The notes under the pieces are model-generated. The model worked only from the letters and a program-made list of their open reading frames with translations. It did no database searches and was not told the origin of the DNA. Shown one piece after another: positions 47,600-59,467 of a DNA stretch of 64,000 bases. The position numbers and the translations under genes are program-made. The DNA is from an uncultured Gammaproteobacteria bacterium (GTDB lineage: Bacteria; Pseudomonadota; Gammaproteobacteria; JABCZS01): assembly GCA_963848305.1 (NCBI GenBank), contig CAWKDC010000001.1, forward strand, positions 992,001 to 1,056,000, given 5' to 3'. Positions within the stretch are counted from its first letter, which is position 1. Each line of letters starts with the position of its first letter.

Positions 47600-48169
47600 A
47601 TGGCAAAGAAATCAAAGCAACCTAAACCTGGCAAACCCAAAGCTGCTAAAGCTTCAAAAAGCCTGGGCGCAACCATCATTGCAACCTTAAAGTCCAGCAA
47701 AACCGAATTAACTCAACAAGTCAAAGGCGCTAAAAAAGCTTTAGCCGTTGCTAAAGTCGCGCACAAAAAAGAATCCGCAAAAGTAAAAGCTTCTCTCGCT
47801 CAAGCAAAAGCCACTGTTAAAGGCCCACGTGGCGCACAAGCCAAAGCAAAAACAGCATTGGCAAAAGCTCAAGCTGCTGCTGCAGCCGCGGCAAAAAAAT
47901 TAGCTGCCGCCACTGACACAGTGAATGCCTCTTTGTTGGCCTTGAAAGAAGTCACACTCCTGCAAAAAGCTGTTGCTCAATTTGAAAAATCTTGGAAGAA
48001 AGAAGCCAAGTCTGCAGCTGTTGCCAAAAAACGTGGTCGCAAAGCCAAGACAGTTGCTGTCACCGCAGCATCTACGAATGCAACCGGTAAAAAACGTGGA
48101 CGTAAGCCAAAGTCACAAGTCGTTGCAACTGAGATTGTTGAGACAGCGCCGGTTGTTGAAGTGGCCTGA
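47600..48169 (+). CDS. Histone H1-like Lys/Ala-rich DNA-binding protein
   Basis: very K/A-rich, two KKRGRK motifs. Confidence 0.75.
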   Translation: MAKKSKQPKPGKPKAAKASKSLGATIIATLKSSKTELTQQVKGAKKALAVAKVAHKKESAKVKASLAQAKATVKGPRGAQAKAKTALAKAQAAAAAAAKKLAAATDTVNASLLALKEVTLLQKAVAQFEKSWKKEAKSAAVAKKRGRKAKTVAVTAASTNATGKKRGRKPKSQVVATEIVETAPVVEVA

Positions 48170-48233
48170 TCCCGGATAAACGCTAACGCGTTTTCCGGGA
48201 TGACATGGGATAAACGCTAACGCGTTTTCCGGA
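48168..48233. repeat. Dispersed copies of the GATCCCGGA...TCCGGGATGAC palindrome (one full, one partial)
   Basis: gatcccggataaacgctaacgcgttttccgggatgac shares ends with the arrays at 57674-58377. Confidence 0.85.
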
Positions 48234-52490: not shown

Positions 52491-55400
52491 ATGTCAAGTT
52501 CTCTCAACACATTAGAACAAATCATCGCTGCTTTGGCTGCCCTCGAGAAATATCGGCAGCGGCTAGCAGCCCCAGCTATTCCGCAGACTACTGCTGCTGG
52601 CAGGCTCACGTTGTACACACATCCTTCTGCCTGCCCCAGCCCAATCCTCGATAAATCTACGCCCCCCGACTCGACCGCTCCTAAACCAGTGGTGCCCGCA
52701 GATTCAGCGTTTCTGGAAGGCGTGTTGAGTAAATTTAAGAATACAAGAGGCAGTTTTGGAGCACTTTATTGGAACGAACAAAATGCCCAAAAAGATAATA
52801 AAGCTTATGAGTTACCTGAGCTAGATATTGATTATTTTCATAAAGATAATGACTCCCGAGAACCAATTCCCCCCAAAGTGCTGATCGATGTCGCCTATGC
52901 TGGCACCCACAAAGAATTCGTGGATATCAACATATTGGCACCCACAAGTGGAACTTTCCTACTACCTGATCACAATAGATGGTTTAACCTCTGCACAGAA
53001 CAAAAAAAATGGTTGACTAATTTTCTCGTTATAGCGAGCCCAGGCTCCACCCTTGACATTAAATCCAACGCAACAGATGGCACCATTGATTTTTGGGTGA
53101 TTCCACCCGGAGGATCTTCTAGACCACCCAATATAGATGAAGTTAAAGCGTTAACACCCGCCGTGGCTCGTTTAACACAGTGGGAATTGAATGGTCGTCC
53201 AGATAGTGGAAATCCAGAGATGCCCAATGCATGGATTTATACACACAAAAAAAGTGATGACCCCCTTGCCACTCTGACTCAGACTGAATTGACGAAAGTG
53301 ACCGAAACGCTAAGCGCTGCTGAAAACAATGTAGCCCCTATCCCATTCATAGTATCGACAAGCAGTGCTACACCTGCGTCTTCAACTTCCTCAAGCAGCA
53401 GTTTTGCATCGTCCGGATCGAGTGCTTCGCAACAACAGCAAAGGACTCCTGATCAGATACTTCTTGACAGCCTAGCAGTGACATCTTCCTCTGCTGATAC
53501 GAGCGCTTCATCCTTGATGTCAAGCAGTTCATCTGGGTCTGCGCCGACAAGCACCACAATGACGGGAACCAATACGGGAACGGATGAACAGCAGAAAAAA
53601 CGCCAACTATTGGTGGAGCTAGAAAAGCGGCAAGAAGAAGCTCGCCTTCAAAAGGTGCAGCAGCAACAAGAACAACTGCGTCAACAACAGACAAGTGCGA
53701 CAAATGCCGGGTCTTTAGCCTCATCTTCCTCAAGCAGCAGTTTTGCATCGTCCGCATCGTCGGGCTCGAGCAGTTCTTCCTCTGATCTGGGCACTTTATC
53801 AAGCTCGAGCGCTTCGCTACAAACTGACACAACAAGCCAGACTACCAATGACCCGCTCAATGAGCTGCGCGATACTCTACTGGCACTTCAAATAATATGC
53901 GCAGCACATGAAGAAGCCAACAAAGCAATAATACTTAGCATCCCGAAGCCCCCTGAGCCAAATGCAGAAACCGATGGAGAGGCCGAGGATGAACCTCAAG
54001 CAGACTATGCAAGAGAACAGGCAGCATATGAAGAAGCAAAGAAAAAATATCAACAAGAACTACCGTCGCTAGAAGCAAAAAAGCAAGCGGAAGGAGAAAG
54101 ATATACACAGCAAATTAAACGGATCAAAGATGGTGAAACTGTCATTCCACCAACGGCCCAAAAAAACAAACCCATTGCCCTGATCTGCGCAAGGATTATC
54201 CTGGATATCCACGCTCTCAATGCCTCTATTGACGATGAGATAGGTGCTGTCAATAAACTTTTACGCATTGCAAATATGCAAAGCCCAGGATTCACTGCAT
54301 CAAACCTTAACGACGACAACCAGGTATTCAAGTCCATGGTAGCCGTGAAAGCGGATTTAGAAAGAGTGATAGCAGTCACAACGATAAAAAAAGTTCCTGA
54401 TGAGTCTGACAAGGATGACGAAGTAAATGAGGAGGTCGCACCAGCTTTACAAAAGATTGTAGAGATACTCAAGTCAATCAAAAGCAATGCTAGTATTGCT
54501 ACTGGGGAACAGATCAATACCCTCAAACAGAATTACAATACCGTTAAAAAGCGTGCAGCCACCCCCCAGCTACTAGCACTCAACTGCCTTCTCATCTATT
54601 TACGTTTAATAGATATTTCAGGCTCTAATCAAAAGACACCAAAGAGATTTTTCAATCATGTCTATGAAGAGATGTGTCGCATTTCTGAAGATAGTGCGAC
54701 AACAAGCAGCGCCGACTCAAGAAATTCCATAGGTTCAAATCCGCTTTTGAGTTTCATTCTTAATGCAAGCCGTGTTAAATATAACATTTTAACAAGTGAA
54801 AGCGAGGCAGGCAAAGGCAAAAGTCCCGAACAAATAGCAAAAGAGAATAAGCGAATCCAGGCAGAATACGAAGCGGCAATAAACACATGTATGGATGAAT
54901 ACGAGGAAATCACGCCCACATCCACAGCAGAAATCGCCCCGTCCTGGACCACATGGGTTAGAAAAGGCGCTACAGCGGCAGGCACGGCAATTTTAGACGG
55001 TGTGAATGCTGTAGGAGCAGGAATTGCAACATTAGGCAAATCGTTCGTGAACCTGTTTGGTGCTAAAGAAAAAGCCAGCGGAACCAGCGCACCAACTGCA
55101 TCATCTTCTCCAACAACATCAAAAAAACCTGCAATGTCAGAAGGGATCGGTGAAACCCTCAGAAATGCTGGCACGACCATTGTTGTGGGATTTGAAGCTG
55201 TTGGTGCTGCGATTGGACGGTTTTGGAAGAAAATGTTCAAAACAAAGAAAGATAATAGAAGAGACACTCAGGCGATACTTGATGATTTCCGCAAAAAGGA
55301 TGAGGAAAGGCAGGAAGACGATGAGATGTTTGCAGAATGGGGCGCACAACTTCGTGACGAGCATGGCAATATCATATCGCCGAAAAGGGAACGAAACTCA

Positions 55401-57644
55401 AGCCGCTTATCCTTGGGCACTGCAATATCAAATGCAAGTAGCTCTTCCTCAAGCAGCGCAGCAACGGACACAAGCAGCAGCTCATCCAGTAGCTCCACAA
55501 CAGCATCATCGAGCAGCATGCCGCCTGCCACAACGACCACAGGAGCTGCATCCGGCGCCTCGTCGGGCAGCTTCGCAGCAGCTACAGAAGACTTGACCGC
55601 TGCAAGCAGCGTAGCCCCCCCTTCAAACCTAGCATTGAGACTTTGGGGCGCAGCAGCCAATGGGTTCATGGGCATGATGCGAGCAGCAAGTGCCTCGAAC
55701 AGCGTATCGCAAGCTGAGCTAGGCTCAGCCGCCGTCAATGGAGTCATTCAAGGTAAAAATAACATTGAACTTGACGAGATAACCAATGAAACCGCTCAGA
55801 AAATAATGACCCTCGGGGCTCGAAAAGATGAAGAAGAAGTCAAGAAAAATCCAAATGTAGCACAAGCAGCATCAAAATACACTGCGCTCAAATATCAGAT
55901 CCTTGCTTTTGAGGGTCAGGAACCCACCTCATTTAAACCTATCAAAGCTGAACTCGCAAGAATTGAGAATATGCCATTTGATGACACGACAAATACAATC
56001 ACCATCATTCCAATATTGGATGTGCAGGGCAGCTCCCTCGTCCAAGCATTTGCTGAAATGCAGGTTCAAAATAAAATCACTGAAATGATCAGTATTTTAA
56101 ATGCTATCCAATCTAGCAGTAGATTATCGACATTGGAGAGTGACAGACTCAAGATGTTGATTAAAACAAATATTCAAAGCCCGACACAAGGAAGTGTTGA
56201 AGATCTCTATCTCAATGTTATCATTCCTGTCGTCAGCACTTTATTACGGATTGCAGAAAACATTGCTGATGGCAATAGAATATCTATCGATTATTTAAAA
56301 CAAGTCAAAAATATTGTGCCAGGATTATTTCATGAAAACTTCAATGCTGCAGCACCTCAAATTATCAATGCTTATGAAAACAGCACGATTTCATCTTTAC
56401 CTGAACCAAAGAGTCTCCCTCTCACATCCGAAAACATTGAAACAGAGATCACAGTTACGCCAATACCAGCATCTCAACCCACTAAAAGAGTGGAACAGCA
56501 AACTCTACACGCCACTGGAAATTACGCCGACACTGTCAAAAAATATCTTTCTATGTTGCAAATGTGCGAAGAGATGTTGAACATTTTTGAAGAGATCGGA
56601 ACAAGAGAACCGGGTATCGCAGTCAAAACATCTAAAACCACGGAAAGGCTTTCTACACTATGTGGGGATTATACAACTAGTAACTTGCTCGCTAAACCAC
56701 GAGAAAAAGTTGTTTATCGTCAGGCAAACACTGCCGTGCAGATAAACAACCTGTATCAATCACCAAACAACCCTCCTAGTCACGAGCAGGCTAAAGCACT
56801 GCGAGATACCTATGTGGTATTGTGCAATTGCGTGAGGAAGCTTGAACAGGCGAACCCTCCTGTCAATTGCGCAGACTTGAAACTCGAGCTTCAAAAATTG
56901 GAATCTCTTTCGCCGATGACTAAAGACAATGTTCTCACTACCTTGCAGCGAGCTGTGAATAAACTCAAAATCATCAATAGAGAACATGCTGAACTCAGCA
57001 AGCTTGAACAAAATCTTGGTATTGCTGGGACAGCCGCACCTGTCAAAACTTCTTTCTTTCCCCTTTTCAACCTGCGCAAACCTAAGCCACAGGAATCTCC
57101 TGTAGTTATCCCACCCCTTACTTTAGAGATAAAGTTAAAAATCAACATCGCTTTTCTTAAGTGGAGAATGAATGATAAGAATGACACATTAAAGGCTGAA
57201 TATCTTGCTAAGTTGCAAGTACTACATCCTGAAATAAAGTCTATTAAATCACTGGGACTGCCGGACGCCTACAATAGTCAGCTCACCGGAGATGACAGAG
57301 CTCTGCTTCTTGACCTCGTTCTTGATGAAGTGCCTGAAAAAGTAAATTCAGAATATCAGCAGTATGTGGATATGCTGGGTAACGGGAAAGTTCTAAGCGA
57401 AGAACAGACATATCGAATGAAAATGATTTGTGTAAGGCTTGGGGAACCACCTGCCCTGAGCGCTGCAGCAGCATCTGATACCGCGAGCAGTAGTAGCTCC
57501 GCTTCGAGCAGTGCCCCACCCTCGCCAACGGCTTCGCCCCATTTACTTGCTGCCGAGGAATTGCACAGTACATTAACAAGTAGTGTGAAAGAAAAAAAAG
57601 AGGAAGAGGAAGTGGAAAAGGGAAACAAGAAGAAGAACGAATAA
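52491..57644 (+). CDS. 1717-aa orphan Ser-rich/coiled-coil protein, effector-like
   Basis: long uninterrupted ORF, poly-Ser and Gln tracts, C-terminal EEEEVE block. Confidence 0.8.
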   Translation: MSSSLNTLEQIIAALAALEKYRQRLAAPAIPQTTAAGRLTLYTHPSACPSPILDKSTPPDSTAPKPVVPADSAFLEGVLSKFKNTRGSFGALYWNEQNAQKDNKAYELPELDIDYFHKDNDSREPIPPKVLIDVAYAGTHKEFVDINILAPTSGTFLLPDHNRWFNLCTEQKKWLTNFLVIASPGSTLDIKSNATDGTIDFWVIPPGGSSRPPNIDEVKALTPAVARLTQWELNGRPDSGNPEMPNAWIYTHKKSDDPLATLTQTELTKVTETLSAAENNVAPIPFIVSTSSATPASSTSSSSSFASSGSSASQQQQRTPDQILLDSLAVTSSSADTSASSLMSSSSSGSAPTSTTMTGTNTGTDEQQKKRQLLVELEKRQEEARLQKVQQQQEQLRQQQTSATNAGSLASSSSSSSFASSASSGSSSSSSDLGTLSSSSASLQTDTTSQTTNDPLNELRDTLLALQIICAAHEEANKAIILSIPKPPEPNAETDGEAEDEPQADYAREQAAYEEAKKKYQQELPSLEAKKQAEGERYTQQIKRIKDGETVIPPTAQKNKPIALICARIILDIHALNASIDDEIGAVNKLLRIANMQSPGFTASNLNDDNQVFKSMVAVKADLERVIAVTTIKKVPDESDKDDEVNEEVAPALQKIVEILKSIKSNASIATGEQINTLKQNYNTVKKRAATPQLLALNCLLIYLRLIDISGSNQKTPKRFFNHVYEEMCRISEDSATTSSADSRNSIGSNPLLSFILNASRVKYNILTSESEAGKGKSPEQIAKENKRIQAEYEAAINTCMDEYEEITPTSTAEIAPSWTTWVRKGATAAGTAILDGVNAVGAGIATLGKSFVNLFGAKEKASGTSAPTASSSPTTSKKPAMSEGIGETLRNAGTTIVVGFEAVGAAIGRFWKKMFKTKKDNRRDTQAILDDFRKKDEERQEDDEMFAEWGAQLRDEHGNIISPKRERNSSRLSLGTAISNASSSSSSSAATDTSSSSSSSSTTASSSSMPPATTTTGAASGASSGSFAAATEDLTAASSVAPPSNLALRLWGAAANGFMGMMRAASASNSVSQAELGSAAVNGVIQGKNNIELDEITNETAQKIMTLGARKDEEEVKKNPNVAQAASKYTALKYQILAFEGQEPTSFKPIKAELARIENMPFDDTTNTITIIPILDVQGSSLVQAFAEMQVQNKITEMISILNAIQSSSRLSTLESDRLKMLIKTNIQSPTQGSVEDLYLNVIIPVVSTLLRIAENIADGNRISIDYLKQVKNIVPGLFHENFNAAAPQIINAYENSTISSLPEPKSLPLTSENIETEITVTPIPASQPTKRVEQQTLHATGNYADTVKKYLSMLQMCEEMLNIFEEIGTREPGIAVKTSKTTERLSTLCGDYTTSNLLAKPREKVVYRQANTAVQINNLYQSPNNPPSHEQAKALRDTYVVLCNCVRKLEQANPPVNCADLKLELQKLESLSPMTKDNVLTTLQRAVNKLKIINREHAELSKLEQNLGIAGTAAPVKTSFFPLFNLRKPKPQESPVVIPPLTLEIKLKINIAFLKWRMNDKNDTLKAEYLAKLQVLHPEIKSIKSLGLPDAYNSQLTGDDRALLLDLVLDEVPEKVNSEYQQYVDMLGNGKVLSEEQTYRMKMICVRLGEPPALSAAAASDTASSSSSASSSAPPSPTASPHLLAAEELHSTLTSSVKEKKEEEEVEKGNKKKNE

Positions 57645-57673: not shown

Positions 57674-57822
57674 CCCTGGCCTCGTCATCCCGGAAATTTT
57701 GCGTAGCAGACACGAAGCGCCCCCTGGCCTCGTCATCCCGGAAATTTTGCGTAGCAAGCGCGAAGCGTCCCCCTGACCTCGTCATCCCGGAAATTTTGCG
57801 TAGCAAAATTATCCGGGATCCA
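57674..57822 (+). repeat. Left array: three tandem 48-49-bp REP-like units
   Basis: cgtcatcccggaaattttgcgtagca starts at 57683, 57731 and 57780; innermost unit is a full palindrome. Confidence 0.95.
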
Positions 57823-57833
57823 CTCATACCTCA

Positions 57834-57862
57834 TTGCAATTAATTTAAACATTAGATATCAT
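57834..57862 (+). promoter_or_regulatory. Sigma70-like promoter of the GIY-YIG gene
   Basis: TTGCAA-N17-TATCAT. Confidence 0.6.
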
Positions 57863-57897
57863 TCACACACTATCAATCAAAATAAGAAGAGCAAAAA

Positions 57898-58209
57898 ATG
57901 AGAACATTCTATGTTTATATTTTAGCAAGTAGAAGAAATGGTACGTTGTATGTAGGAGTCACCGCGCATCTTAGTCATCGCATACAAGAACATAAACAAA
58001 AAATGTTGCCCGGATTTACTTCAAAATACGGAGTGAATCGCTTGGTGTATTACGAAAAGCATAAAATGATTATTGAGGCAATTAAGCGGGAAAAACAAAT
58101 CAAAAGGTGGCGCAGGGCATGGAAAATTGCATTAATAGAAAAAATAAATCCAGAGTGGGAAGATCTTTGTAGAGGTGATTATATTGCATATCCTCGCCCG
58201 AAAACATAG
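57898..58209 (+). CDS. Stand-alone GIY-YIG nuclease family protein
   Basis: FYVYILAS.RNGTLYVGVT..L..RI.EHK, FTSKY.V.RLVYYE, AIKREKQIKRW.R.WK..LIE..NP.W.DL. Confidence 0.93.
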   Translation: MRTFYVYILASRRNGTLYVGVTAHLSHRIQEHKQKMLPGFTSKYGVNRLVYYEKHKMIIEAIKREKQIKRWRRAWKIALIEKINPEWEDLCRGDYIAYPRPKT

Positions 58210-58235
58210 TTTCACTTGGTCTGAGATCGTTTCCC

Positions 58236-58377
58236 TGGATCCCGGATAATTTTGCTACGCAAAATTTCCGGGATGACGAGGCCAGGGGGACGCTTCGCGT
58301 CTGCTACGCAAAATTTCCGGGATGACGAGGCCAGGGGGGCGCTTCGCGTTTGCTACGCAACATTTCCGGGATGACGA
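58236..58377 (-). repeat. Right array: three tandem REP-like units, inverted relative to the left array
   Basis: tgctacgcaaaatttccgggatgacg three times (third copy with one substitution); innermost unit a full palindrome. Confidence 0.95.
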
Positions 58378-58410
58378 AGTATGTGTGGGCAGCCCGCTGC
58401 GTGGGGGTTG

Positions 58411-59467
58411 TCACGCATGACGCTCATGCACCGCATCCACCAAGGCAGCCACGTGCTCAGGTGGAATACCGGGATGAATGCCGTGGCCGAGGTTAAACAC
58501 ATGGCCGGGATGTGAGCCGAAATCACGTAATATTTTCGCGACTTCAGATTGAATCACTGCAGGAGATGAGTACAGCACAGCGGGATCAAGATTACCTTGC
58601 AACGCCACTTTATCGCCCACACGTATGCGCGCATCGCCGATGTTGATCATCCAATCCAAGCCCAATGCATCACAACCAGTATCACTCATCCATTCTAACC
58701 ATTGACCGCCGCCTTTGGTGAATAAAATATTCGGGATGCGCGAGGCGCCACGCGATTTCGTTAAACATTCGACAATGCGTTGCATGGGTTCGAGTGAAAA
58801 GCGTTTGTATTGCTCAGGCGCTAAGATGCCGCCCCAAGTATCAAAAATCATCACCGCATCTACGCCAGCATCGATTTGTGCGTTTAAATATTCAGCCACG
58901 CTGTCGCTTAACACCGCCAATAATTGATCCATCAACGCAGGCGATTCGTACATCATTGCTTTGACTTTCGCAAATTCTCGCGTGCTGCTGCCTTCGACCA
59001 TGTAAGTGGCCAATGTCCAAGGACTGCCGGCAAAGCCAATCAAGGGGACGCGCTGATTCAATCCTTGCTTGATCAGACGAATGGTTTCATAAACATATGG
59101 CATGGTATCGAGCGGATCGGGGACAGCCAATCGTGCAATGTCAGCGGCTTGTTTGATGGGACGCGCAAATTGCTCAGTCGCCTTCCACGAAATGTAACCC
59201 TAACCCCATGGCGTTCGGGATGGTGAGAATATCAGAAAACAAAATCGCTGCGTCTAAATCGAAGCGGGCCAAGGGTTGCAACGTGACCTCACACGCCCAT
59301 TCGGGCGTTTGCATCAAGTTCATAAAGCTACCCGCCTGTGCCCGCAGCGCACGGTATTCGGGCAAATAACGTCCCGCCTGACGCATGATCCACACGGGTG
59401 TTTTATCGACGGGTTGACGCAGTAACGCTTTGATCAAACGATCATTGTGCAAAGGCCGATCACTCAT
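58411..59467 (-). CDS. hemE: Uroporphyrinogen decarboxylase, frameshift near 59175
   Basis: [42 protein letters not shown]. Confidence 0.96.

Follow-up and report, generated by a model that had tools for sequence, protein, structure and literature searches.

Single-domain GIY-YIG enzymes of about 94 amino acids make up the Ssn family (CDD cd10448), whose pairing with a hairpin repeat was described by Chenal et al. (2025; PMC11893778), the only paper on the family that our literature search found. According to that paper, the four members tested, from three Neisseria species and Wolbachia, bind the hairpin repeat as single-stranded DNA (ssDNA) only and cut it a few nucleotides upstream. The Neisseria repeat, NTS, starts with CGTCAT and is palindromic from the AT onward; cutting is governed mostly by the 3 nt preceding the palindrome, and binding mostly by the C directly after it. 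The reverse NTS strand is uncut, a longer stem is tolerated, and a half site is cut once the other half has been annealed to it. With homology defined by tblastn (E < 1e-10 versus N. meningitidis SsnA), an SRM was reported near 71% of Ssn homologues and on both sides in 42%. In N. meningitidis, Ssn cuts hairpin-bearing DNA that enters by transformation or conjugation and modulates recombination near marked loci, and this restriction of ssDNA uptake is the sole in vivo role that the paper reports for the family. Its Discussion compares the NTS-gene-NTS arrangement to insertion sequences, to IS200/IS605, and to REP/BIME and their transposases, and it raises the idea of a mobile cassette; whether the enzyme spreads the repeats is left open there.

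We analysed a 64,000-nt window of gammaproteobacterial DNA (the whole stretch, to which coordinates given without a contig refer), in which an initial annotation had described a small GIY-YIG gene with its own flanking hairpins as a RAYT/REP-like system. RAYT genes encode HUH Y1 transposases and are flanked by REP/BIME palindromes; Nunvar (2010) and Ton-Hoang (2012) are cited on such systems in PMC11893778. The core of the annotation's idea, a GIY-YIG enzyme paired with the hairpins beside its gene in analogy to RAYT/REP, is supported; it had already been published as Ssn, and the accompanying remark that such palindromes have no established mechanism is out of date since the 2025 report (PMC11893778). 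We consider it highly probable that the locus is an Ssn-type system, in which cognate SRM-type hairpins stand on both sides of a gene for a one-domain GIY-YIG endonuclease.

Organization of the locus

The ssn-type gene, an open reading frame (ORF) for a 103-aa single-domain GIY-YIG nuclease with a PF01541 match (57898..58209, plus strand), is enclosed by a pair of inverted three-unit arrays, each about 145 bp long, as initially described. The left array (57674..57822, plus strand) consists of two half units followed by one complete hairpin unit, and the right array (58236..58380, minus strand) of one complete unit and two half units; in both arrays the heads point away from the gene. The left complete SRM-type hairpin (57780..57822, plus strand) has a CGTC head, a 16-bp two-tier stem with one bulged A, a GTA loop and a CCA tail, and the right one (58236..58278, minus strand) is identical to it on the other strand. 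The tail of the left hairpin ends 75 nt before the start codon, and that of the right hairpin begins 26 nt past the stop codon. Successive units are spaced by 48 and 49 nt in the left array (direct) and by 49 nt in the right array (on the other strand), and the best inverted pair across the two arrays covers 103 nt at 97% complementarity. The 26-mer that had been proposed as common to all six units is exact in five; the outermost right unit carries one mismatch.

Each half unit is made up of a 5' flank, the CGTCAT head, the left arm, the loop and a spacer. Folding bore out the observation that complete palindromes are confined to the innermost units: as ssDNA, one of the two gave a dG of -14.6 kcal/mol (z -6.1) and the other of -19.7 kcal/mol (z -7.5), and for a half unit there was no folding beyond that of shuffled sequence (z +0.9). 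Three of the four half units contain the small CGCGAAGCG-type hairpin that had been ascribed to the spacers, and in the first left spacer it is imperfect. The left and right arrays have one spacer type in common, which shows them to be mutual copies and not products of independent growth.

The site TTGCAA-17-TATCAT (57834..57862, plus strand), which had been taken as the gene's own promoter, is present and matches the consensus at 9 of 12 positions. Such a match is at chance level, with two promoter-like sites found in the stretch and 1.2 expected, and the promoter claim does not go beyond this. No public RNA run was found that holds the locus. As had also been noted, there is no transposase or integrase near the gene: its neighbours are a 1717-aa ORF, hemE, aroK and an AAA ATPase gene, and the arrays and the gene together fill the spacer between the 1717-aa ORF and hemE save for about 30 nt per side.

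The 1717-aa ORF (52491-57644), in which serine runs and coiled stretches abound, has no DNA match in two same-genus and two same-family genomes; it is lineage-specific and adjoins the cassette. On the other side, hemE is split over two frames in the window (59130-59177). Contigs from two public runs differ from the window at 59174-59177 by two extra bases and three substitutions, and the frame split reflects an error of assembly or else a difference between strains.

The nuclease

The 103-aa protein matched a single family, PF01541 (GIY-YIG), over residues 4-76 with an E value of 7.5e-15. In an alignment of 23 homologues, Y7, Y18, G20, R28, H32, E65 and N84 are invariant; we take these to be the GIY and YIG tyrosines and the metal-site residues, following the roles assigned in the GIY-YIG literature. 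The AlphaFold2 model is one compact GIY-YIG fold (pLDDT 89.3), and its best Foldseek matches were 1zg2, Slx1 and the UvrC N-terminal domain, all of which are GIY-YIG folds. The protein is an intact single-domain GIY-YIG enzyme.

No Ssn structure was found among the solved structures searched, where the matches were UPF0213 proteins. These UPF0213/YhbQ-type proteins (1zg2, 1ywl) share size and fold with the nuclease and are the closest solved structures, although sequence similarity to them is weak (E 0.0086); we know of no hairpin association for them. GIY-YIG homing endonucleases of the I-TevI type combine the nuclease domain with a linker and a DNA-binding domain and are as a rule carried by introns or inteins. 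This type was rejected on three grounds: the TIGR01453 score of 19.7 bits is below the cut-off of 56, the protein consists of a single domain, and its gene is free-standing and intergenic. Membership of the RAYT/REPtron group was rejected as well, there being no HUH Y1 transposase and GIY-YIG being the sole Pfam match.

The closest homologue found anywhere is 73% identical (P0002), and the metagenome scan reached a maximum of 69%. Homologues of 54-69% identity span Caulobacter (Alphaproteobacteria), CPR groups, Chlorobi, Dehalococcoidia and others.

Comparison with Ssn and related systems

The connection to the canonical motif is made by a protein from a same-family genome that is 59% identical (E 7.8e-32) and whose gene has the exact published NTS consensus on both sides, with the heads outward. 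The putative assignment to the family of SsnA (cd10448) is in this respect indirect, going through the sequence of this homologue with its canonical NTS. Both complete units of the present locus carry CGTC, a palindrome starting from AT and then CC, and thus the critical determinants are kept on both sides of the gene. The locus resembles published Ssn systems in its one-domain GIY-YIG enzyme of about 100 aa, in the CGTCAT head, in the palindrome running from AT and in the trailing C. It resembles them as well in the bracketing of the gene by hairpins with outward heads, in the presence of gene-less hairpins elsewhere and in the variation of the hairpin with the protein.

Several features differ. 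The stem is 16 bp long and two-tiered, with a conserved outer 7 bp and a variable inner part, whereas published Ssn hairpins have stems of about 8 bp. Tandem half copies stand outside the full hairpin, unlike in the published Ssn layout, and three inner-stem sub-families accompany a single gene, which also is unlike published Ssn. The genome holds about a dozen copies, compared with hundreds in SRM-rich genomes. The word "tandem" is absent from the main text of PMC11893778, whose supplements may list long-stem variants or half copies.

The published degenerate SRM string gave seven chance-like matches in the whole genome, none of them at the hairpin family or the locus, because the inner stem here is longer than the 0-5 nt gap that the string allows. 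Since the string misses long two-tier hairpins, surveys based on it undercount the association. The canonical NTS pattern, searched across the class, occurs in 45 of 401 genomes with a maximum of 62 copies, and it has no match in this genome. The failure of the published string to match these hairpins counts against the assignment to Ssn, as do the indirectness of the link, a copy number far below that of the SRM-rich genomes stressed in PMC11893778, the chance-level promoter match, the lack of an RNA run with the locus, and half-copy arrays that the mechanism published there does not explain.

Like RAYT/REP systems, the locus has a lone nuclease gene between inverted copies of the genome's own extragenic palindromes, would have its hairpins recognized in single strands, and is accompanied by gene-less doublets elsewhere. 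GIY-YIG hydrolysis here would stand in place of the HUH tyrosine covalent intermediate there, and the analogy is one of presumed working mode, not of membership. The subterminal hairpins read on ssDNA and the cut at a distance from the hairpin are shared with IS200/IS605; these elements, however, are cut at both ends on the same strand and rejoined, whereas the hairpins here lie on opposite strands. Intergenic arrays of repeat units bounded by the same kind of hairpin are found in the Neisseria dRS3/intergenic mosaic arrays too, but the units here are truncated hairpin copies, all on one strand.

Hairpins at homologue loci

Homologue loci were drawn from relatives, from 80 named genomes of many phyla and from 80 metagenome contigs, and a GTC[AG]Y head directly followed by a hairpin was searched for in 400 nt on each side of the gene. 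The genome sample comprised 84 loci, counting that of the window, and a locus was used if its flanks reached 300 nt or more. In this test, which the initial annotation had proposed, close homologues from many phyla usually had CGTCAT-headed hairpins in their flanks: hairpins were found on either side at 56 of the 84 loci and on both sides at 39. The heads pointed outward at 31 loci and inward at 14. In control regions 1200-1600 nt away, hairpins on both sides were seen in 3 of 59 cases. Among the 52 metagenome loci with usable flanks, 26 had a hairpin on either side and 12 on both, with outward heads at 9 and inward heads at 2. The 28 of 84 genome loci at which no hairpin was detected weigh against the Ssn reading.

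The annotation had also proposed to test whether hairpin and protein co-vary, and they do: the more the proteins differ, the more the hairpin arms differ (Mantel r of 0.30, a value reached in 0 of 2000 permutations), a level of support that is overstated because related sequences are not independent. In the 84-locus survey, the median distance between hairpin tail and gene was 17 nt, as against 75 and 26 nt here, and the stretch from GTC to the end of the stem most often measured 23-24 nt, as against 39 nt here. Other homologues, too, have two-tier stems in which the outer part is conserved and the inner part varies with compensating changes. Among 89 homologue loci, 12 had half copies on the 5' side of a full hairpin and 6 had them on the 3' side, and one homologue locus has seven 23-nt units.

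The hairpin family in this genome

We searched the assembly (1.89 Mb) for further members of the family. The 26-mer, with up to 3 mismatches, occurred at nine sites, six of which belong to the ssn locus. Complete family hairpins numbered 12 by a strict pattern (head, 12-28 nt, tail) and 14 by a fold-based scan in which hits accepted as family members were counted. The initial annotation had pointed out that a highly abundant repeat would be expected to bracket an intergenic gene by chance; with 12-14 complete hairpins in 1.89 Mb, the repeat is scarce. About 0.006 complete hairpins are expected by chance within the two 400-nt flanks of any one gene, and with so few copies in the genome, the likelihood that two complete and four half units would surround a gene by accident is negligible.

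The family has several inner-stem versions, three of them recurrent, and the head and the outer 7-bp stem are common to all. One solitary hairpin of sub-family B, which has a different inner stem, lies in the window at 48168..48206 (minus strand), directly 3' of the stop codon of an ORF and with a head-less partial copy adjoining. Other family hairpins likewise were found just 3' of stop codons. The genome has one ssn-type gene, and it contains gene-less tail-to-tail hairpin doublets whose geometry is that of the cassette ends.

An unrelated small GIY-YIG gene that happens to stand among REP-like or terminator hairpins would account for the positions just after stop codons, for one hairpin that stands where a same-genus genome has a plain terminator-like hairpin, and for the lack of a match to the published SRM string. 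We regard such a coincidence as extremely improbable, given the two complete and four half units seen in flanks where about 0.006 hairpins are expected, the 97% complementarity of the arrays, the excess of the family-level association over controls (both sides in 39/84 versus 3/59), and the co-variation of hairpin with protein and co-occurrence of gene with hairpin.

Half-copy arrays recur at five other places in the genome, and the spacer of half units often contains GCGAAGC, a very stable DNA mini-hairpin. At C4:29853-30019, three half units and one complete hairpin form an array with no nuclease gene adjoining; it has the same 5' flank as the arrays of the ssn locus and a different spacer. 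Rfam returned nothing relevant for the ssn locus.

Predicted action of the enzyme

By analogy with the Neisseria and Wolbachia enzymes, the innermost unit on each side would fold when the DNA becomes single-stranded during replication, repair, conjugation or transformation. The protein would then bind at the stem base, where it would recognize the GTC that immediately precedes the palindrome and the C that immediately follows it, and would hydrolyse the head strand within the CCCTGRCCT flank, a few nucleotides 5' of CGTCAT, if it acts as those enzymes do. With outward-pointing heads, either strand would offer a single site for cutting, and the two would lie at opposite outer edges of the gene. 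The outer half units, which lack the 3' arm and the critical C, should not be bound in cis; we take them to be local duplications, perhaps made by cut and repair. Since head and outer 7-bp stem are common to the three sub-families, a single enzyme probably acts on them all.

Distribution and mobility

The gene is present in 4 of 40 relatives and in neither of the two same-genus genomes, G001 and G002 (99% and 95% complete). The hairpin pattern has 12 matches in this genome and none in the 40 relatives. At 36.5%, the G+C content of the ORF is below that of the window (46.5%). In the aroK-hemE neighbourhood, the two same-genus genomes carry other genes, only hemE and aroK matching; compared with G001, the cassette and the large ORF fall within a variable stretch of 6-7 kb with collinear flanks. 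The patchy spread, the composition and the variable site point to a horizontal arrival of gene and hairpin, followed by hairpin spread in the lineage. The AT-rich gene most likely came by horizontal transfer together with its hairpin, which would since have spread to about nine other sites. This pattern of arrival and spread is circumstantial support for an enzyme that spreads its repeat.

We did not find the precise empty site in relatives that the initial annotation had proposed to look for: there is none in G001 or G002, because the left neighbour differs in both same-genus genomes. In one, the left neighbour is a 177-aa hypothetical gene; in the other it is a HicA/HicB toxin-antitoxin pair, which in G002 (L012 2733-3307) takes the cassette's spot next to hemE. 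For the cassette of a relative (L004), the search for an empty site in five same-genus genomes matched one flank in each. No direct repeat that could be a target duplication was found at the outer edges of the arrays, and no second copy of the cassette was found in the genome. Contigs of three studies contain pieces of the gene with 0 differences to the window, and they break at the arrays; no contig that skips or flips the cassette was found in four public runs, whose depth is low. A transposon or MITE bounded by terminal inverted repeats was rejected: the arrays are inverted, but no target duplication lies at their outer edges, the genome has one copy, and the same-genus genomes show no precise empty site.

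The hairpin-gene-hairpin unit might also move as a whole, either because Ssn cuts hairpins elsewhere and host repair copies the cassette in, in a homing-like manner, or because the inverted arrays serve as its ends. Such autonomous mobility is compatible with an Ssn-type system and would add mobility to it. The patchy distribution (4/40 relatives, 0/2 same-genus genomes), a protein that is 54-69% identical across many phyla, the AT-rich interior, the variable spot next to the conserved aroK-hemE pair and the gene-less tail-to-tail doublets with the geometry of the cassette ends all speak for it, and the idea is raised in PMC11893778 itself. We nevertheless hold it to be possible but somewhat unlikely, in view of the missing target duplication, the missing empty site in G001 and G002, the single copy in the genome and the lack of skipping or flipping contigs in the four low-depth runs. 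GIY-YIG enzymes hydrolyse DNA, and we know of no strand transfer or joining activity among them. Moreover, excision of the IS200/IS605 kind, with both cuts on the same strand, cannot happen where each strand offers a single site to cut.

A service to the host, in which the enzyme restricts incoming hairpin-bearing ssDNA and modulates recombination near marked loci, would agree with the sole in vivo role that PMC11893778 reports for the family. For this locus we judge it distinctly unlikely: 12-14 hairpins are too few to mark much of a genome, and the absence of the gene from the same-genus genomes searched argues that it is not a conserved host function.

The Ssn-type system that we favour could have a more eventful history, in which gene and hairpin made a joint and recent entry into the lineage, the hairpins are spread and remodelled by the nuclease, the same-strand half-copy arrays are scars of repeated cuts 5' of the head with faulty repair, and hairpin clusters promote flips of neighbouring genes. 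We put this forward tentatively, as an unlikely course of events.

Three of the six hairpin clusters examined (C1:408976-409100, C1:1408761-1408837 and C1:1516907-1516976) abut a gene-sized segment of 0.45-1.3 kb that is inverted in place relative to G001; one of the flipped segments is ruvC. There were five flips in the approximately 100 kb compared, two of them without hairpins, and no inverted repeat was found at the far edge of the flipped segments. The overlap between hairpin clusters and inversions is a lead with small numbers. At two spacers, L195 (~1400-1470) and L202, the place of this genome's Ssn-type hairpins is taken in G001 by another palindrome, GCACATTGCGGC...GCCGCAATGTGC, which in one case precedes a T-run. 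It seems that corresponding intergenic places are occupied by different hairpin families in sister species.

Implications

The locus is a fresh example of the published Ssn system with local oddities, not a new kind of system. It adds one further Ssn/hairpin pair, from an uncultured soil and wetland gammaproteobacterium, and it offers a clean natural case, in which a single gene accompanies about a dozen hairpins with three versions of the inner stem and the sister species have neither gene nor hairpins. This makes the genome a simple place to ask whether the head and outer stem suffice for recognition and whether the enzyme causes the repeat to spread. Enzymes that accept long stems would widen the set of site-specific ssDNA cutters. 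If the half-copy arrays are scars, their junctions would record the cut sites of the enzyme, and they would be the first genomic evidence of repeat expansion and local rearrangement driven by Ssn.

Other observations in the assembly

From position 1 to about 135000, contig C1 has a G+C content of 57-59%, compared with about 46% for the rest, and the contig may be a chimeric join. A second, distant GIY-YIG ORF (~85 aa, 34% identical to the protein of the ssn locus) occurs at C1:630951-631202 and C1:958405-958656, both within copies of the 23S rRNA gene, and this pair comprises the sole other GIY-YIG ORFs in the genome. The ORF lies about 560 nt from the 5' end of the rRNA gene with a perfect 17-nt inverted repeat around it, and the whole resembles an rRNA intervening sequence with a gene for a nuclease inside.
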